Assembly: GCA_046758745.1 (NCBI GenBank)
Contig: JBHIAV010000003.1
Coordinates: forward strand, 19,247-83,246
DNA from: Gemmatimonadota bacterium
GTDB taxonomy: Bacteria; Gemmatimonadota; Gemmatimonadetes; Palauibacterales; Palauibacteraceae
Length of the DNA stretch: 64,000 bases
Direction of reading: 5' to 3'
The number at the start of each line of letters is the position of its first letter. Within the stretch, counting starts at the first letter, position 1. This document shows, in pieces, positions 4,101 through 60,247 of this stretch. The notes beneath the pieces were generated by a model that was not told the origin of the DNA, searched no databases, and saw nothing but the letters and a program-made list of their open reading frames with translations. The position numbers and the translations under genes are program-made.

Positions 4101-4700
4101 ATGAACCCGTCGGACCTCTTGATCCTCGTGTTCGGACTGGCGGCCCTCGGTGTGGGGGTCCCAAAGGCAGCCTCCTGGGTTCGCCGTCCCCGTCTCCATC
4201 TGTATGTGGAGAGATCGGGCGCGGCCGATCGGCTGCGGATCGGTGCGCAGATCGCGAACCGGTTTCTCGTGCGCGTCGAGAACACGGGTCTCTCGCAGGC
4301 CCGGGCCTGCCGCCCCACCCTGGATACGATCGATTACTGGGACGGAGAGCGTTGGCGGCCGCACCTCGGGTTTCCCTACTCGATCGGGCTCGCATGGGCC
4401 GACCGCAACCTTCCGAACGCGATCGACCTCTACCCGTCTTCGACCGCCGACCTCGTCCTCGGTGTGGCGGTGCAGGGAGAGTCGGCGTTCCGCCTCCTTC
4501 CCCCGGTCACCATCGCGTCGGGAATCCTGCTCGAGTACCCGGCCGGCGTTTACCGGCTCGGGGTCTCCGTGACGACCGGCGCGGGAGAGGTAGCACGCTT
4601 CGCCCGGCACTTCGTGGTGGAGCACGGTGGGGATTGGGAGGGGGTGCGCGTGCGGGCGGAGGGGCCGGAGAGCGCGGCGTATCAGGTCGCGGCGGCCTGA
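4101..4700 (+). CDS. Hypothetical protein, N-terminal TM anchor plus beta-sandwich-like domain
   Basis: Hydrophobic N-terminus followed by an alternating beta-strand pattern; ATG at 4101. Confidence 0.65.
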   Translation: MNPSDLLILVFGLAALGVGVPKAASWVRRPRLHLYVERSGAADRLRIGAQIANRFLVRVENTGLSQARACRPTLDTIDYWDGERWRPHLGFPYSIGLAWADRNLPNAIDLYPSSTADLVLGVAVQGESAFRLLPPVTIASGILLEYPAGVYRLGVSVTTGAGEVARFARHFVVEHGGDWEGVRVRAEGPESAAYQVAAA

Positions 4701-4834
4701 GCTGGCAGGCCCTGGAGCGACGCGCTCCCGGCACCGGCCGGTCCGAGCCAATCCCCTCCCATCCGCCTGAGCTGGCAGGCAGCCCTGGGGCGACGGGCCA
4801 CCGGTACCCCGGGTCCGAGCCAATCGCCCCATCC
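4695..4834. repeat. Degenerate tandem duplication, 2 x about 70 bp
   Basis: gcctgagctggcaggc at 4695 and 4765; gtccgagccaatc at 4741 and 4813. Confidence 0.85.
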
Positions 4835-5047
4835 TCGTGAGCCGAGCCTTGCGCGAATCGGTGCGCGCGTAATGCGCCGCGCCCCCGCGGTGACCCCTCG
4901 ACGCCACGACCACGCTCCGGTATCCTGATCGACACCGACGTCCACGACTGGGGTTGCCGCGGCCCTCTCGCGGCTCCGGCCGCGGGTCCCCGGCACTCGC
5001 GGCCACGTCGAGGCGACTTTCGAACGCGCCGGTTTCGCTCGAGGAGG

Positions 5048-6357
<1,310 letters not shown>

Positions 6358-6361
<4 letters not shown>

Positions 6362-6999
6362 CCGTTGTTCTCCCGCCGCTCCGACTCGGGCCAGATGCGC
6401 TCCGCCTCGAAGAGAGACTGCTGGGCGGGCGTCGGCGCCGGATAACGCACCGTCCCGCCGTGGAGGACCTCGGCGTCGGGGTGCAGCTGGTGCGGCTGCG
6501 TGCGGCCGGGACCGAGGATGTGCACAACGCTGGCGCCCCGCGCGACGAGACCGTCGGAGAGGAGCCAGCGGTGACAGCGCCACGGCAGAGCCTCGGCGCA
6601 CATGACGGCCACGGCGCGTCGTATACTCTCATCCAGCAGCCGCGTCACCGCGGCCGCGAAGGCCGGTGTCGCCATGTGGTCCGCATAGGCCCGGAATCCG
6701 GGGCTCCTGAGCGCGAGGTTCGGCGAATTCGGCCCCGGCAAGCGTCTCCCGCCGAGGTCTTCCTCGTGCCGATACTCGATCCGGGAAGCCGCCAGGTCCC
6801 GCGTCAGCACTGCCCGGCTGAAGTGAGGATGACGGCGAGATCCGGGGAACCTTCGGACGTCCACCAGGACCCTCACGTCATGCCCGCGCAGCAGGCGGAG
6901 GAACATCTCGGTGGAGCGGGTCGAGTGTCCGATGGTGAAGATGGGATGGCCCAAGTCGCTCACGCGCGTTGCTACGCGGGCCGGGTCGGTCCGTTCCAT
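6358..6999 (-). CDS. DUF488 family protein
   Basis: IFTIGHST, VDVRRFPGSR, MCAEALPWRCHR motifs; start trimmed to 6999. Confidence 0.88.
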
Positions 7000-40822: not shown

Positions 40823-41148
40823 CGCTGGGCGCTCTCCGCTGGGATTGACAGCCTCCGGACGGGCCGGAGCGTGGATCCGGGTTGCAGAAGCAAAGAGTCT
40901 GCCACACCTTGGGAATCAGCTTGGATCAGCCGCAACGTGCTGCAAGAGCGTCGCTTACGTGGCGCGCACATGCCGGGCTGGGTTGCCGCCCTCACCGGTT
41001 GCGCCCGACCGGGTGGCGATACGCAACACGCCCCGGTGAGCGGTGCGTGGCGGCTGCCACGTGCGCGCGACACCCGATGCCGTCGTATATTCCCCGCGAA
41101 GCGGCAATCCGCTTCCCTCCTACCGACAACCCACTCGCGGGAGCAAGG

Positions 41149-53974: not shown

Positions 53975-54342
53975 TGTCTCCCGACATCTACAAGTTCGTC
54001 CACATCCTCGGCATCCTTCTCGCCTTCACGGCGCTCGGCGCGGTGAGCCTCCACGCCCTCAACGGTGGGAGCAGGGAGTCGAACCGATCCAGGAAGCTGG
54101 TAGCCTTCACCTTCGGGACGGGCATGCTCCTGCTCCTGGTCGGCGGTTTCGGGCAGCTGGCAAAGCTCGGCATGGGCGGCGGGCTGCCGGGGTGGGCGTG
54201 GGGAAAGCTCGCCATCTGGCTCGCCCTCGGCGCCCTCCTCATCCTTCCCTACCACCGCCCGGATCTCGCGAGACTCACCTGGTTCGGGGCTCCCGCGCTC
54301 GGGGCTCTGGCCGCGTACCTCGCCCTAGACAAGCCGTTCTGA
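53971..54342 (+). CDS. Small 4-TM membrane protein (SirB2/DUF2269-like)
   Basis: YKFVHILG, LVGGFG, W..GKL.IW; ATGA overlap with the protease stop. Confidence 0.75.
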   Translation: MMSPDIYKFVHILGILLAFTALGAVSLHALNGGSRESNRSRKLVAFTFGTGMLLLLVGGFGQLAKLGMGGGLPGWAWGKLAIWLALGALLILPYHRPDLARLTWFGAPALGALAAYLALDKPF

Positions 54343-54396
54343 GGGAGCCGTGATCACGCGGCGGTCCACCAGCCTCCACGCGCCGGCGGGGCGGCC

Positions 54397-54561
54397 GTGA
54401 CCCCGAAGCGGCTCACGGGAATCTTCCTGTATCCGTTGAAGTCCGCAGCCGGCATCGCGGTGGACGCGTGGCCGGTGGACGAGTTCGGCCTGCGGGGAGA
54501 TCGCCGGAGCGGGAAGGAGGCCGCCTCGCAACCGAGCCGACGCCGGAACCGGGAAGCATGA
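54397..54561 (+). pseudogene. Truncated MOSC N-terminal (YcbX-like) remnant
   Basis: Hand translation gives LTGIFLYPLKSAAG...GLRGDRR, then loses similarity and stops at 54 aa. Confidence 0.75.
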
Positions 54562-55160
54562 GCTGGATCCGGAGCATCACGTACGGGGAGGCCACCGGGC
54601 GCCTCCGAAAGCTGTACGACCGGATCGGCGGCCCCGGGTCCATCGACAACATCCTGAAGGTGCACGGGCTCCGGCCACACACGCTCGAGGGGCACATGGC
54701 CCTGTACAAGAGCGTCCTGCACCACTCCGGAAACCGGCTCCCGCCATGGCTGCTCGAAGCCGTCGCGGTCTACGTGAGTCTCCTCAACCGCTGCGACTAC
54801 TGCGTGGAACACCACTCGGCCGGTCTCCGACGGCTGCTGGGGGATGACCGCCGGACCGAGTCTATCCTCGCGGCTCTGCGGGAGAGAGAGCCGGAGCGAG
54901 TCCTCGAGGGGGTCGAGCTCGCCGCCCTTTGCTATGCCGAGGCGCTGACGCGCGATCCCGGCGCGCTCCGGGAGTCCGACCTCGAGGCGATGCGGGCGGT
55001 GGGGATGGACGACGGGATGATCCTCGAGGTGAACCAGGTCGCCAGCTATTTGGCCTACGCGAACCGCACCGTCCTGGGGCTGGGAGTCACCACGCGCGGC
55101 GACACGCTTGGCCTGGCGCCGCGCAGGGCGGACGACCCCGAAGACTGGCGGCACGGCTGA
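54558..55160 (+). CDS. AhpD/CMD-like peroxidase-related protein
   Basis: DNILKVH, NRCDYCVEHH CxxC motif, AYANRTVLGLG. Confidence 0.9.
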   Translation: MSWIRSITYGEATGRLRKLYDRIGGPGSIDNILKVHGLRPHTLEGHMALYKSVLHHSGNRLPPWLLEAVAVYVSLLNRCDYCVEHHSAGLRRLLGDDRRTESILAALREREPERVLEGVELAALCYAEALTRDPGALRESDLEAMRAVGMDDGMILEVNQVASYLAYANRTVLGLGVTTRGDTLGLAPRRADDPEDWRHG

Positions 55161-55194
55161 GGGGGCGCGTCGGCGCTCTCGGCCGCGGTCCGGC

Positions 55195-55968
55195 TCAGGC
55201 GCACGCCGGCGACGGCAGCTTGACCGGCCGCAGCATGTAGTTGCGATCCTCCAGGATCGCGCCGGTCGCCTCGAAATATTCTTCCCAGAAGTCCTTCACG
55301 CGCTGCGCGGCCTCCGTGTCGACGCGCGCGCCCACCACCACGATGCACAGCCCGGTGAGGTCGGGCAGCGTGCCCCCCGCCTTCTCGGTCGCCACCCAGT
55401 CGGGAGGTGGCATCTTCCGGAGCCCCTCCATGTCGATGGTGCGGTTCGATTGGAGCATGTCGGAGAAGATGTACAGCGTGGCTTCTCGGTTCGGCCACGC
55501 TCGAAGCTCGGCCGCCACGTCGTGCAGTGTCGAGAGGATGTCGGTACCGTCGATGTGTTCCCTGTTCGCGGTATCGGTGAACGCCACCAGATAGTCCTGC
55601 GCATCCTTGAGGAAGCGCGCTCGGGTGATCGAGTCGCGGGCGAGCTCGAGTTGCTGCCACTGACGACGCGGCACGCTCTGGGCCCAGCGCTTCGGGGGCT
55701 CCTCGAGCGAGAGCTGAAGGAGCTGGAGGGCGGCGATCCGATCGTTGTGGGTGAGCTGGCCGATGCGCTCGTTCGTCAACTCCCGCGCCAGATCCAGCTG
55801 GTAGTCGTCGATGCTGGTAGAGCGGTCGTAGACGAAGATGACCAGCTCGGGCGGGCCCTCGGCGATCTCCGCTCCTCCCGCGGCGGATCCCTCCTGCGTG
55901 CAACCGGCGGCCAGCGGGGCCAGTGCAGCCACGCCGGCGATCCGGAGACGGAGCCCTCGGCGTCTCAC
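55195..55968 (-). CDS. Lipoprotein with VWA/MIDAS-like domain
   Basis: LAAGC lipobox; DRSTS (DxSxS), GTDI, FSDM. Confidence 0.78.
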   Translation of the reverse strand: MRRRGLRLRIAGVAALAPLAAGCTQEGSAAGGAEIAEGPPELVIFVYDRSTSIDDYQLDLARELTNERIGQLTHNDRIAALQLLQLSLEEPPKRWAQSVPRRQWQQLELARDSITRARFLKDAQDYLVAFTDTANREHIDGTDILSTLHDVAAELRAWPNREATLYIFSDMLQSNRTIDMEGLRKMPPPDWVATEKAGGTLPDLTGLCIVVVGARVDTEAAQRVKDFWEEYFEATGAILEDRNYMLRPVKLPSPACA

Positions 55969-57776
55969 CAGACGGTCGCCTCCTTGATGAAGCGGGTGCG
56001 GATCGCCTCGAAGCGCTCTTCCAGCCTGTGTCGCTCCGCCTCGTACTCCTCCGGATCACGCATCAACAGGGTGCGCGTCTCCTCCTCGGCGGCCTTGAGC
56101 TCCAGCTGAACGGGCTCCGCGAACGCCGGAATGGCACGGGGGTCCAGGCCCCGTGCCCGGCCGTTCTCCGCCCGAAACGTGGCGATCGCGGCCTCCAGCT
56201 CGTGCACCAGGGCCGGCCATTGCTTGAGCGGCCTCTCGGCCAGGAGGTTCTTGAGGTCGCGCGTGTGGTGCACGATCTCTGCCAGGAGTTCGGCGACCGC
56301 TCCGGCGGCTGCATCCCCGAGCTCGATGAGAGTCCGCCGTTCCCGCTCGAGCGGTCCTTCGTTGAACCGCTCGCGCCGCCGATCCCGCTGGTGGAAGTAG
56401 GAAGCCGAGATGGCGACGAGCACCAGCGTGGTGTTGAGGAGCAGGATGGGAAAGCTGAGCCCGCTCATCGACGCCGCGTACTCACGCTGTTCCGTAGCCA
56501 GGGCCTCCAAGTCGTCGGCTCGGTTGGCCTGCTCGTTTGCGGCCACCAGGTTGCCCTCCACGCGGAGCCAGCTCGCCGTCCTGCGGAGCTCCTCGATGAC
56601 GGCGCTGTCCTGCTCGAAGCGGTTTTCCGCCACCTGGCCGAGCGTGACCCGCGCCTCGAACAGAACTCCGATGACCAGGGCCAGGCCGAGACCCGCAATG
56701 CCCATCGGCACGACGTGCTCGCGCGTCGAGCGCGGCGACACGGTCTCGCTTTCCCTCCCGGATCCTGTCTGGACCAGATAGGATCGCAGAGACTGCCCGA
56801 AGAAATGAGCGAGGACGCACAGGAACGTGACGACGCCGGCGGCGAGAAGGGCAGCGTCCGGGCGCAGTATGAACTGGGACACGACGCGAGCCGCCCCCGC
56901 CAGCCATCCCTCGCTCGTCTCGGCCACCAACCTGAGCTGTCGTTCCGTCAGGGGGTCGCGGGGAAGCAGGGCGCCGAACACCGGGGCGTTGGCCAGAAAC
57001 TCCACCAGCCCAAGGAAGCCGATCGCCAGGGCATACCACCGTGTCCTGAAGCCTCGCTCCTCCTCGACCTCCGGCTTTTCGTCCGCTATTTCCTCGGCGA
57101 TCAGCTCCTTCCGCGTCTCCCAACGTGCCTTCAGACGAAAGAGCTCATTCGTCGTTCGCTCGAACCGGTCGATTCCGAGACCCACGCGTCCCAGCTTCTC
57201 GGCCGTCGCCCGCTCGGTGCGGGCGACGAGCGAGTTGAGGCGATCCCGCTCCCGCGCCTGCCAGCCCTCGAAGAGGGCGGAGCACCGGTCACGCAGTTCC
57301 TGCTCGGACTCGGAGCGGCCGGACACGTCGGCGCTCGGCAGGCCGGCGTCGGCATCCCGACGCGCCGTCTCGACCGCCTCGAGTCGGAGGCGGTGCAGCG
57401 CGACCGCGATGTCGTCCGCGAAGGTGGGCTTCGGTTCCTTTCGAGACGCTCCGGCGCGCTTCTCCTCGGAGGCCCGTTCCGGCTCCGAGAGGACGGTCGC
57501 GACCTCGGAAGCGGCCAGGGCGACCGCGGCCGGCCTAGTCGGGGCCGCTACCCGCCCCTGACCCGTCGGCTCGCCACCCTCGTGGGCCGCGCGCTCCACG
57601 ACCTCCGACCAGCTCGAGGGGTCGGCGGGGGCCGACTCGTGCGAGGAACCCGGCTCGGGGATGCGATCGAGCCAGGACGGAATCTCTCTCTCTTCCCGGG
57701 CGCCCCGGCGCTCTCGCTCGCTGGCTCTCATCCTCTTGCCATCTCGACGGTCACTCCTCGTCCAATCGCGTCCCAT
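55965..57776 (-). CDS. 603-aa coiled-coil membrane protein with four TM segments
   Basis: Glu/Arg/Ala-rich helical stretches plus four hydrophobic segments; ggagagg SD; overlaps the VWA gene start. Confidence 0.8.
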   Translation of the reverse strand: MGRDWTRSDRRDGKRMRASERERRGAREEREIPSWLDRIPEPGSSHESAPADPSSWSEVVERAAHEGGEPTGQGRVAAPTRPAAVALAASEVATVLSEPERASEEKRAGASRKEPKPTFADDIAVALHRLRLEAVETARRDADAGLPSADVSGRSESEQELRDRCSALFEGWQARERDRLNSLVARTERATAEKLGRVGLGIDRFERTTNELFRLKARWETRKELIAEEIADEKPEVEEERGFRTRWYALAIGFLGLVEFLANAPVFGALLPRDPLTERQLRLVAETSEGWLAGAARVVSQFILRPDAALLAAGVVTFLCVLAHFFGQSLRSYLVQTGSGRESETVSPRSTREHVVPMGIAGLGLALVIGVLFEARVTLGQVAENRFEQDSAVIEELRRTASWLRVEGNLVAANEQANRADDLEALATEQREYAASMSGLSFPILLLNTTLVLVAISASYFHQRDRRRERFNEGPLERERRTLIELGDAAAGAVAELLAEIVHHTRDLKNLLAERPLKQWPALVHELEAAIATFRAENGRARGLDPRAIPAFAEPVQLELKAAEEETRTLLMRDPEEYEAERHRLEERFEAIRTRFIKEATVW

Positions 57777-58159
57777 GAAGCCTCTCCGCCTCGTTCGTCG
57801 CTCTCCTGGCGCGGTCGCGAAACCGCTGGAGGGCGCGGGGTCTTCGCATCAGGGCCACGGTCGGACCCTGCCGTGGTCAGCCGGAGAAACGACCGTTGGC
57901 AAGAAGGCTGCCAGACACGGCTCCCGGCGGGGACTCCTGCCACCGCCATGTAGCGCTGGGACTTAAGTTGAGTTTTTCCGGAGGCGCCGTACGGCATTCG
58001 TGGGAAAAGTTTTCCGAGCGACGAGCCAGGTAGCCTGCCCGCAATCGCCGATACGAGACCGCCGGTAAGGGTAACCAGCGAAACGTGCGGGGAGATCACC
58101 CCCCTGAGGGGATGCCCGCTCCCCGCATCGCCGACATGGAGCGTGGCGCCACTCGGGGC

Positions 58160-58384
58160 TCAGCAGAGCCGCTCGCGGTGAATCTCGCGCGCCATCGCCT
58201 GGGCCGCTTCGGCCAGGGCCTTCTCGACCCGAAGCAGGGCGTGCTGCAGTATTCGGTCGACCTCCGCCTCGTTCTTCCGCGACATCGCCAGCCGCTCGGC
58301 CGACACCACGATCTCGTCGACCCTGGCCCGTACGTCGTTCTTGATGGCGTGGAGCAGAGCCTCGGTGGTCGGGCTGTACCCCAT
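58160..58384 (-). CDS. Small helical hypothetical protein (74 aa)
   Basis: ggagg SD before ATG 58384; amphipathic helix pattern. Confidence 0.7.
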   Translation of the reverse strand: MGYSPTTEALLHAIKNDVRARVDEIVVSAERLAMSRKNEAEVDRILQHALLRVEKALAEAAQAMAREIHRERLC

Positions 58385-58440
58385 GTTTTCCTCCCGCGCA
58401 GCCGGGGCTTCAGGCCTCGGCCGTCCTGCACGCGCTCGAT

Positions 58441-58602
58441 TTATGTCCGTTTGTTCACGATCCGGCGCACCACCCACAGCCACAGGGCGAGCGAGGCCGC
58501 CACGAACACCAGCAGCTCGTGGGAGGCCAGGAAGTCGACCAGCATCTCCCAGGCCCGCTGCCACAGCGGAGTCGGATGCGTCGGATCGCTCTGGTACAGC
58601 AT
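58441..58602 (-). CDS. Small single-TM protein (53 aa)
   Basis: Purine-rich run before ATG 58602; TM LLVFVAASLALWLWVV followed by RR. Confidence 0.55.
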   Translation of the reverse strand: MLYQSDPTHPTPLWQRAWEMLVDFLASHELLVFVAASLALWLWVVRRIVNKRT

Positions 58603-59134
58603 TCTCTCTCTCTCGGGGTCCGGGAGAGTGGTCGGTGCGGTACCGCCGCTCAGACCGATGGAGGCATCCCGGAGCGGGTGCACGCCGCCCGGGTGCCCCG
58701 GGTCCTTCGAGCGCCTCAGGAGGGCAAGGCCATGGCCAGGGGGGCGGGCTGTGTGCTTCCCTATTTATTTTATTACTCTGCTTGCCGTTACGTCATTTAT
58801 CGGTCCCTGCTGTGGCGCCCGCGCCGCACCCTCCTGTGGACCGACCATGGCAAAAAGCGCGGCCCGGTTGCAGAACGGGACCGCGCATGGTGCGGCGCGT
58901 CGACCATCCGATTCCGGGGCGAGGAGCGCGGCGGCATCCCGCGCGGATGGACCGAGCGACGTTGAGGGGCCGTTGACGCCCGTCACGCACCGTCCCCCCG
59001 TGGGCCGAGGACGGAGAGAGGCGGCGTCCGCCGGCTCCGCCGTCGCACGGGTCGGGAGGCCGGGAGGAAGTGGAGTGAGGGAAAGAGCGGGTGCGAAGCG
59101 GCGGACGGTGCGAGGGAGGGATGCGGCTGTCGAT

Positions 59135-60247
59135 GTGCCGCCACCGTCGCGAGATCGGGAGTCGCACGCCTGCGCGTGCGGGCGAGCGAGAGGCGTACCC
59201 CGCGGCTTCGCCCTCCCGACGACGCTCCTCGCCCTCATCGGCTTGACCGCCCTGGCCACGGCCGGTTTCCTGGTGTCCGCGTTCGAGCGCCGCATCAGCG
59301 AGGCGCATGCGACGAGCGTGAACGCCTTTCAGGCGGCCCGGGCGGGGCTCGAGACTTTCCTCGGGGAGGAAGGGGAGCCCGAAGGGACGACGCGCACCTT
59401 CTCGTTCCCGGATGGATCGGCAGTGGTCACCGGAACCCGACTCCTGACCGTCGACAGCGGTCGGGTCCTCCTCTTGGTCGCTTCCGACGGCTCGGCCGGT
59501 CCCTCGGCGCGGAGGGGGGCCCGTCGCTACGTGCGACTCGTCGCCCTGCTGCGCGATCGCTACCTGCGCCCGCCGGCCGCCCTCGCTTCGGCCGTCGGAA
59601 TCACCGTGCCGGGAACTCCCGATGAGATCTCGGGCTTCGACGCCGCGGCACCAGGCGAATGCCCGGCGGCGCCGGCTCCCGCCACCGCGGGGATCGCGGT
59701 TCCAACAGGGGGCTACGAGAACCCCGGGGCCTCCACGGCCGCCGTCGGCTCCCCCGACATCCAGGAGGCGGGAAGCGCGATCGAGCTCTTCGCCGGAACG
59801 GGGCTCGACTGGCCGGCCCTCGCGCCTCTGCTTGCCTCCGAGGCCGAGGTCACCGTCATGGAGAACGAATGGCCGGATTTCTCGCTCGTCGGGCCGGGCC
59901 GGTGGCCCCTGATCGCCATACCAGCGAAGGAACTTTCGCTCGGGCCCGCGCACAGCGGCAACGGGACGATCGTCGCCCTCGGCGATCTCACGCTCGAGAG
60001 CGGGTTCGAGTGGAGGGGCGTGATCCTGGTCGGCGGGCGGCTCTCCCTCGAGGGACCTGTCGTCCTCGAGGGAACGGCGGCCGGTGGGCTGAACGCTCTA
60101 GGCGGCGAGGTCACCGAACAGACGTGGATCGTCGGCGCGGGCGCCGTGATCCGCTATCAGTCCTGTGCCGTCGCGGCGGCTCTCGACGGCTGGCCGTTCG
60201 GCCTGGCCGAGGTGCCAGGCAGTCGGTACGAGTCATTCGGACCGTGA
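59135..60247 (+). CDS. PilX-like type IV minor pilin/assembly protein
   Basis: Prepilin-like RG|FALPTTLLALIGL, AFQAARAGLE, F.WRGVILVGG; start uncertain. Confidence 0.75.
   Translation: MPPPSRDRESHACACGRARGVPRGFALPTTLLALIGLTALATAGFLVSAFERRISEAHATSVNAFQAARAGLETFLGEEGEPEGTTRTFSFPDGSAVVTGTRLLTVDSGRVLLLVASDGSAGPSARRGARRYVRLVALLRDRYLRPPAALASAVGITVPGTPDEISGFDAAAPGECPAAPAPATAGIAVPTGGYENPGASTAAVGSPDIQEAGSAIELFAGTGLDWPALAPLLASEAEVTVMENEWPDFSLVGPGRWPLIAIPAKELSLGPAHSGNGTIVALGDLTLESGFEWRGVILVGGRLSLEGPVVLEGTAAGGLNALGGEVTEQTWIVGAGAVIRYQSCAVAAALDGWPFGLAEVPGSRYESFGP

Follow-up and report, generated by a model that had tools for sequence, protein, structure and literature searches.

The window analysed here is a stretch of 64,000 nucleotides (nt) from a Gemmatimonadota bacterium (contig JBHIAV010000003.1 of assembly GCA_046758745.1; the genome is called G000 below), and it carries on its minus strand two overlapping genes, here named A and B, which are the subject of this report. 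In the list of open reading frames (ORFs), gene A (55965..57776, minus strand) starts with ATG and encodes an inner-membrane protein of 603 amino acids (aa) from an unnamed family, and gene B (55195..55968, minus strand) starts with GTG and encodes an exported lipoprotein of 257 aa with a vWA fold, that of the A domain of von Willebrand factor. The overlap of the two genes, which had been reported in a first-pass annotation made from the bare sequence, was borne out and amounts to 4 nt (GTGA), the GTG start of B overlapping the TGA stop of A (tgGTGAgac), an arrangement typical of translational coupling, here of B to A. The motif GGAGAGG is found 4 nt 5' of the ATG of A at 57776; a second possible start, the ATG of M16 (57731), would yield a protein of 588 aa, the same as database entry P0001. 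Both genes were strongly called by a codon-usage gene caller trained on G000, and this codon usage, together with the conservation of the two genes as neighbors in an unchanged order in 27 of the 37 genomes of the window's family, establishes A and B as real genes. A scan of positions 54000-60000 against Rfam returned a single spurious sub-threshold miRNA match only. New in this work are the position of A-B at the end of a Tad operon, that is, an operon for type IV (Tad/Flp) pili, in 11 genera, its detachment from that operon in the clade of the window, and a predicted sigma-54 promoter on the detached pair.

Architecture of proteins A and B

On the Kyte-Doolittle scale protein A contains four hydrophobic segments (residues 249-267, 308-326, 355-373 and 440-458), and its AlphaFold2 (AF2) monomer is all-helical, with a predicted local distance difference test score (pLDDT) of 72 and confident long helices at residues 119-232 and 474-602. 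Residues 1-117 form mostly coil of low confidence (pLDDT <50 across most of them), consistent with a disordered N-terminus, in which the short motif SWLDR is conserved. The features of A listed in the first-pass annotation, namely the disordered N-terminus, the long helices, the four transmembrane (TM) segments, the ARRDADAGLP motif (residues 138-147) and the VEFLAN motif (258-263) inside TM1, are all present. Because A has no signal peptide and begins with 245 charged N-terminal residues, its N-terminus should lie inside the cell, which would place the loop 272-307 outside, the Arg-rich loop 331-354 inside and the net-acidic hairpin 376-440 outside. Both ends of the protein would then be cytoplasmic, with the C-terminal domain inside, behind the positively charged stretch RDRRRERF that follows TM4 and is itself assigned to the cytoplasm.

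Following the chain from its N-terminus, a conserved cytoplasmic helical domain (residues about 118-245) leads into TM1 (56964..57041, minus strand, as for the other parts of both genes; residues about 246-271), which contains E259, N263 and P265. These three residues are invariant in the close family; in the wide family conservation reaches at least 90% at N263 and P265, and the consensus has D at position 259 (VDFxAN). After the predicted periplasmic loop (residues 272-307) comes TM2 (56787..56855; residues about 308-330), with the motif LAHFFGxSLR and a glycine, G327, that is invariant in the wide family, and then TM3 (56652..56714; residues about 355-375), directly followed by the invariant R376. 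The predicted periplasmic helical hairpin (56457..56651; residues 376-440; WLRVDGNLVAANEQANRADDLEA) is net acidic, with 7 K/R versus 12 D/E, and strongly conserved in the close family. TM4 (56394..56456; residues about 441-461) bears the invariant N448 (PILLLN), and the C-terminal cytoplasmic helical domain is conserved and carries the motif YRAENGRxRGLDPRxIPAF. In the wide family E158, G327, R376, N448 and R535 are invariant, and at least 90% conservation extends, besides N263 and P265, to F267 and P272 in or just beyond TM1, to R331, and to N538, R542, D545 and F552 of the C-terminal motif. Conservation peaks over TM1-loop-TM2 and over the hairpin tip together with TM4, a pattern which indicates that A is constrained inside the membrane and on both of its sides.

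No Pfam, NCBIfam or PADLOC model matched A above its cut-off, and no Pfam model matched it even at E<=1; in a Pfam scan of 56 diverse members of the A family (E<=0.01) no domain was found apart from one stray match, and a sequence profile search of the PDB gave no match. Likewise, Foldseek returned no fold match in the PDB for the model of A, the hits being generic long-helix or coiled-coil ones (best E 0.011), and likenesses to stators, ABC proteins, TTYH and alpha-pore-forming toxins were not taken as homology. The MotA/ExbB/TolQ stators and ZorA of Zorya resemble A in general terms only, as polytopic proteins with polar TM residues, long cytoplasmic helices and a periplasmic partner, whereas A has neither a PF01618, stator or PADLOC Zorya match nor a fold match, and its partner is a vWA lipoprotein instead of a MotB/ExbD/TolR-like protein with a TM aspartate. 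Only 168 clusters among 1.84 billion representatives were retrieved with a profile of A, the architecture being identical in all of them. A is a four-TM protein of a new, unnamed family.

Protein B begins with a leader, MRRRGLRLRIAGVAALAPLAAG-C23, ending in a lipobox (LAAG-C) whose cysteine (C23; 55900..55902) is invariant in 32 close homologues; among these the lipobox, assigned by motif, is mostly L-A-G-C, and two distant members (L027 and L028) have a leader without the cysteine. B is by these features a predicted exported vWA protein, usually lipid-anchored. The first-pass description of a lipoprotein with a complete MIDAS (an adhesion site dependent on a metal ion) proved accurate: the DxSxS motif (D48-R-S50-T-S52, DRSTS, residues 48-52; 55813..55827) stands at the end of strand beta-1, T142 in a G-T-D context (55543..55545), and D170 in the sequence F-S-D-M after strand beta-4 (55459..55461). 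D48, S50, S52, T142 and D170 do not vary among the 32 close homologues or across 18 loci reaching down to about 27% identity, and their positions agree with the strands predicted in the AF2 monomer (pLDDT 67, predicted TM-score (pTM) 0.67). All 26 PDB hits that Foldseek returned for this model at E<=1e-3 are vWA-type domains, with modest TM-scores of 0.3-0.58, the matches comprising TFIIH p44, ITIH1, the Sec23 trunk, Ku80, CLCA1, NorD and integrin I domains (E 3e-5 to 1e-3). At the level of sequence, B falls below the Pfam cut-offs both for VWA (PF00092; 14.1 bits vs 23.8) and for VWA_2 (PF13519; 13.7 vs 27), the sub-threshold VWA match covering the beta-1/alpha-1 part only; no NCBIfam or PADLOC match exceeds its cut-off, and a sequence profile search of the PDB gave nothing significant (E=0.32 to a VWFA protein). 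Since its fold matches are to vWA domains only and its MIDAS is invariant, B is a divergent but genuine MIDAS-bearing vWA protein, and, being exported, it would have only the two periplasmic parts of A within its reach. The uncharacterised two-gene envelope system proposed in the first-pass annotation is in this way recovered as a conserved inner-membrane four-TM protein with an exported vWA/MIDAS lipoprotein, and the pair still answers to no named system, with nothing above cut-off in Pfam, NCBIfam or PADLOC and, for A, nothing in the PDB by sequence or by fold.

Distribution of the pair and its place in Tad operons

All named sources of the A family are Gemmatimonadota ('Candidatus Palauibacterales' and 'marine benthic group', the names being those of database titles), as is every carrier genome that was placed; a distant carrier derived from NCBI was assigned to the same phylum by the overlap of genome sets. 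A was found in 14 of the 301 sampled genomes of the phylum and, with B always beside it, in the 27 genomes of the window's family mentioned above, where the pair is syntenic at 52-67% identity. In A-family members outside the window's family (21-35% identity to A) and in four unplaced metagenome or NCBI contigs, a homologue of B lies directly downstream, often overlapping. The first-pass annotation had raised the question of whether the two genes co-occur elsewhere: at every locus examined, the most distant included, B directly follows A. A-B is a two-protein envelope module specific to Gemmatimonadota. Some relatives harbor two copies (G014, contigs C32 and C61; G029, C42 and C54; G018, C61 and C300), and in G014 the two copies each end a separate, complete tadZ...AAA+ operon. 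Protein P0255 (799 aa; L030:557-2956) looks like a natural A-B fusion, in which the hydrophobic leader of B and an LAGC lipobox are internal, between the two halves; the retention of this leader would fit a cytoplasmic C-terminus of A and an external B.

In nine genera of the window's family and in two of a sister family, A and B are the last cistrons of a complete Tad/Flp operon, with the general order flp ... tadZABC-DUF192-AAA+-A-B. Mapping of T2SSF domains in 16 genomes placed TadB/TadC-type genes in 7 of them (8 loci) on the strand of A, about 2 kilobases (kb) upstream of it, and the linkage was extended to the 11 genera by mapping the AAA+ gene of the tad operon, the gene directly 5' of A wherever the pair is tad-linked. 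On the annotated contig L037 the order is tadZ-tadA-tadB-tadC-DUF192-AAA+(491 aa)-A-B, with short or overlapping junctions, and L041, in which the pilus genes were confirmed with Pfam, carries two flp genes, an A24 prepilin peptidase gene, TadE, RcpC, secretin and TadG-like (PF13400) genes, tadZABC, DUF192, AAA+, A and B, in this order. Within the family, A-B and the tad-operon AAA+ gene occur together in 24 genomes, A-B alone in three and the AAA+ gene alone in one, and at least nine genomes have neither. The TadG-like gene of the related tad loci matches PF13400 with an E of 1e-10; its products in the A-B-linked loci show no vWA match and no DxSxS in strand context, and a sequence profile search of the PDB with the TadG-like protein gave no match. 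B is the only MIDAS protein of the tad-linked operon.

The tad operons of Gemmatimonadota display two extra conserved genes after tadC, one for a DUF192 protein and one for a divergent AAA+ ATPase of roughly 430-490 aa (L037:4849-6764; L041:10091-11856; contig C31 of G000, 4682-6471). By eye only, the N-terminal region of this ATPase resembles a winged helix. Its gene is present in 37 of the 301 genomes of the phylum sample, mostly without A-B (27 of the 37 carriers), and the protein gives weak, sub-threshold matches to AAA (PF00004), AAA_16, Sigma54_activat (PF00158), Mg_chelatase, CdvC and PAN, with no MoxR family among the matches listed. Its identification as a sigma-54-dependent bacterial enhancer-binding protein (bEBP) was set aside, its PF00158 match being sub-threshold and the protein itself not being among the bEBP matches of the genome.

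The detached locus of the window and its predicted sigma-54 elements

In seven genera, including that of the window, A-B lies outside the tad operon. The tad operon of G000 is found on contig C31 (tadZ ... AAA+), where it ends after the AAA+ gene without A-B and is followed by unrelated genes, and the RcpC gene of this genome is on contig C117. In the window no ATPase gene adjoins A-B, and in the window's clade the neighbors of the pair are redox or housekeeping genes.

A putative -24/-12 element of the sigma-54 type, TGGCAGCCTTCTTGC (GG-N10-GC; 57899..57913, minus strand), is located 122 nt upstream of the ATG of A at 57776. Across seven genomes the 380-nt region upstream of A shows 47% identity, and the single conserved block within it is TGGCAGCCTTCTTGC itself, which is invariant; elements of this type precede A in further relatives, several of which have a second copy before S74, a small gene directly upstream of the pair. 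A sigma-70 scan found no sigma-70-like site in the intergenic region upstream of A. A second sigma-54-like element in the window, TGGCCATGGCCTTGC (one mismatch; 58724..58738, minus strand), is situated upstream of a non-conserved 80-aa ORF and of S74. The genome was scanned with the consensus TGGCA-N6-TTGC, either strictly or with at most one mismatch (boxes TGGCAC-N5-TTGC-like). The strict pattern occurs at 6 sites in the 3.07-megabase genome, fewer than the 17.7 expected; four of the six are intergenic and correctly oriented, and one of these four precedes a type IV pilin gene. Sites with one mismatch were found upstream of two Flp pilin genes, three pilin-like genes, pilB (pilB/pilT), a TadG-like gene and a PilX-like gene, the sites of the pilus genes being spread over contigs C35, C40, C55, C27, C8, C9 and C11 of G000. 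In a tad-linked relative a perfect site stands 140 nt upstream of flp. G000 also encodes rpoN (E 2.5e-64) and at least six bEBPs (six at E<=1e-66). This distribution of predicted sites suggests a pilus-heavy sigma-54 regulon in the window's organism, and, given the sites that it shares with pilin genes, the detached A-B pair appears to have stayed in the pilus regulon.

Two other strict sites were recorded in the same genome. The first, TGGCAGACTCTTTGC (window 40890-40904, minus strand), precedes an unannotated ORF of 73 aa (MEPDKAVVVESCPH...) by 67 nt, and the second, TGGCACGCCCGTTGC, at about 107742 (plus strand) of contig C3, lies 73 nt upstream of a 489-aa gene, the N-terminus of whose product has, by eye only, the look of a KaiC/RecA-type ATPase.

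With regard to the genes that surround the pair, S74 (58160..58384, minus strand) encodes a 74-aa helical cytoplasmic protein and is conserved directly upstream of A-B in the clade with the detached pair, with its own sigma-54 site in relatives. It was found only in this relocated clade and in one genome without A-B, and on these grounds it was set aside as a third subunit; S74 is a neighbor whose membership in the system is uncertain. Between the sigma-54-like site at 58724-58738 and S74 lies the 80-aa ORF (58441-58683, minus strand), with one TM segment; no homologue of it was found, whether in related loci or at other places in the genome, and it was likewise set aside as a member of the system because it is not conserved. 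On the plus strand, divergent from the S74 and A-B side, the ORF 59138-60247 displays a prepilin-like N-terminus (GFALPTTLLALIGLTALATAGF) and a weak PilX_N match (E 0.0033, below cut-off), and is not found at this position in relatives.

Possible roles of the pair

Based on these observations, we favor, with a probability of roughly 0.55, the reading that A-B is a pilus-associated envelope module, its periplasmic MIDAS-vWA lipoprotein held by an inner-membrane protein that belongs to a new family; the pair is probably an undescribed accessory part of type IV (Tad/Flp) pili. Several vWA/MIDAS proteins are known from such filaments: CpaL, TadG, PilY1 and PilC1 are pilus-associated and act in adhesion and surface sensing, the role proposed for CpaL being adhesion and surface sensing, and outside the loci described here TadG and CpaL themselves bear the vWA domain and its MIDAS (PMC12607857, PMC13170226). 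For PilY1 and PilC1, work cited in PMC12607857 has the MIDAS as a requirement for adhesion and pilus function. Like B of the tad-linked loci, TadG of Aggregatibacter actinomycetemcomitans and CpaL of Caulobacter crescentus combine a vWA domain and a canonical DxS/TxS/T-T-D MIDAS with a gene in the tad locus. B differs from them in having a lipoprotein signal peptide instead of a pilin-like TadE/G N-terminus, with no PF13400 match; in its length of only 257 aa and the absence of the beta-rich insert seen in CpaL; in its obligate pairing with a four-TM protein, a partner that TadG and CpaL lack; and in its location, inside the tad locus in 11 genera but outside it in the window's clade, and also in at least nine genomes without Tad genes. 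PilY1 and PilC1 of type IVa pili (Pseudomonas, Kingella/Neisseria) are, as B would be, pilus-associated vWA/MIDAS proteins with genes in pilus regulons, but they are large secreted tip-associated proteins with a beta-propeller, have neither a lipid anchor nor a four-TM partner, and show no detected sequence similarity to B. In the alignment subcomplex of type IVa pili, PilN, PilO and PilP, encoded in a pilus operon, are inner-membrane proteins with periplasmic helical or coiled-coil parts plus the lipoprotein PilP. A-B resembles this assembly in its architecture, an inner-membrane helical stalk with a lipoprotein; PilN and PilO are bitopic, however, PilP is a beta-sandwich and not a vWA domain, and no sequence or fold similarity to A-B was found, the comparison having been made through the negative Pfam scans.

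If A-B is a pilus-associated module, we infer how A might transmit anything, and what the MIDAS might bind, as follows. B would be held on the periplasmic face, where Mg2+ in its MIDAS would clamp an acidic residue on the hairpin of A or on a part of the pilus (pilin, secretin or alignment complex). The cytoplasmic domains of A and its intramembrane polar residues (E/D259, N263, H324, R376 and N448) would relay the periplasmic contact to a cytoplasmic partner, for which the AAA+ ATPase of the gene just upstream is a candidate in the tad-linked loci. In this manner the module may provide in trans the vWA function, adhesive or mechanosensitive, that CpaL, TadG or PilY1 have elsewhere, anchored in the envelope and not placed at the pilus tip. 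A bolder form of the proposal, which we regard as speculative and unlikely, would make A-B a new trans-membrane coupling device for type IV filaments, in which an oligomeric A, with an Asn/Asp/His/Arg network conducting ions or a conformational change, links a motor or regulator in the cytoplasm (the AAA+ ATPase of the tad operon or, in genomes without Tad, other proteins) to a clamp formed by the MIDAS of B on the fibre or its conduit. Were this true, the device would be a cell-anchored mechanosensor, brake or anchor, unlike the tip-located vWA proteins known so far.

A number of observations speak against a role in the pilus, or limit it. At least nine carriers of A-B lack both RcpC and the tad-operon AAA+ gene and, where checked, also Tad-type TadB/C; they are three genomes of genus g7 together with G096, G161, G186, G319, G351 and G378, which belong to other families or are unplaced. 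Since A-B is found in these genomes, the Tad pilus cannot be its sole partner and the module is self-contained; A-B can work without Tad, be it together with type IV filaments of another kind or in a role independent of pili. The six distant genomes among them, to which the check for it extended, all have the type IVa gene pilC. In the distant families the loci are found in unrelated contexts (kinases, toxin-antitoxin genes, bactofilin/PilZ), and, B being a lipoprotein and not a pilin fusion, it cannot be a pilus-tip protein like CpaL. Furthermore, the AF2 monomers are only moderate (pLDDT 72 for A and 67 for B), with low confidence in the TM1-TM2 region of A, the topology of A and the ligand of the MIDAS are inferred, the sigma-54 promoter is a prediction from sequence alone, and the A-B fusion is known from a single short (5-kb) Logan contig and may be a frameshift error.

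As the main rival we consider an envelope function independent of the pilus, which we hold to be possible without being probable. A-B could then be a four-TM oligomer that conducts ions or signals, joined by a periplasmic subunit whose binding depends on a metal; it would act in envelope integrity, in stress sensing or for a different surface structure, and would merely have been captured by the tad operon in one clade. The retention of the pair in genomes without Tad and in varied contexts, its maintenance outside the operon across the seven genera of the window's clade, among redox and housekeeping genes, and its persistence in genus g7 after the loss of the AAA+ and RcpC genes are all in agreement with such a function, as is the family-wide conservation of the intramembrane polar residues N263, N448 and R376. 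Nevertheless, the embedding of A-B in the operon in 11 genera, with short or overlapping junctions, is hard to call an accident, and within the family its presence or absence closely follows that of the tad-operon AAA+ gene. The predicted sigma-54 promoter of the detached copy moreover resembles those of pilin genes, and the six distant Tad-less carriers that were checked, a set to which genus g7 does not belong, retain type IVa pilus genes.

It is improbable, in our estimation, that A-B serves as membrane and periplasmic arm to a remodelling machine of AAA+ and vWA proteins, of the MoxR-vWA kind, in which the ATPase would act on the disordered tail or the cytoplasmic domains of A while the MIDAS of B holds the substrate. 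Partnerships between AAA+ and vWA-MIDAS proteins are established (MoxR-vWA, ChlI/ChlD of Mg-chelatase, NorQ/NorD), and the tad-linked loci resemble the MoxR pairs (NorQ/NorD, BatA/BatB) in that a vWA/MIDAS gene lies near a gene for an AAA+ ATPase, a divergent one that directly precedes A in every tad-linked locus; NorD is among the fold matches of B, and the SWLDR motif is conserved in the otherwise disordered cytoplasmic N-terminus of A. Against this, the ATPase matches classical AAA models, and these only weakly, with no MoxR family among its hits; it occurs without A-B in the 27 of 37 carriers of the phylum sample noted above, A-B occurs without it in at least nine genomes, and it is missing at the window locus and in many carriers. 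In addition, B is exported, whereas NorD is cytoplasmic and BatA and BatB have their own TM anchors. With a cytoplasmic ATPase and a periplasmic B, any link would have to run through A. The least probable explanation by far is the anti-phage defence or conflict system envisaged in the first-pass annotation, with a membrane effector and a vWA sensor: vWA proteins are known in some conflict systems, the neighbors of one distant locus are PIN/antitoxin genes and a ResIII helicase gene, and the AAA+ protein of the tad-linked loci has a faint match to the IteA anti-phage ATPase (29 bits vs a cut-off of 510), but neither A nor B matches a PADLOC-DB 2.0 family at E<=1, inheritance is vertical and syntenic within the family at the identities given above, the contexts are core genome or pilus operon and not defence islands, and the family is narrow, unlike the patchy cross-phylum spread typical of defence genes. 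The uncharacterised envelope pair of the first-pass annotation is retained and its defence role finds no support, and the clue to a pilus, the end of the Tad operon in sister genera together with the sigma-54 promoter, is one that it did not contain.

The phylum appears to have split the vWA function from the minor pilin and tied it to a membrane protein dedicated to it, which comes from a new family and is conserved on either side of the membrane. How force or contact is sensed at the pilus is an open question, for which vWA/MIDAS proteins such as CpaL and PilY1 are the leading candidates, and a confirmed pilus-associated A-B would represent a second, envelope-anchored architecture for this function. 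Two orphan families would then gain names and roles, and so, probably, would the DUF192 and AAA+ genes in their operons, genes of a type widespread in marine and sediment Gemmatimonadota. The sigma-54 sites provide a testable regulon for this uncultured lineage.

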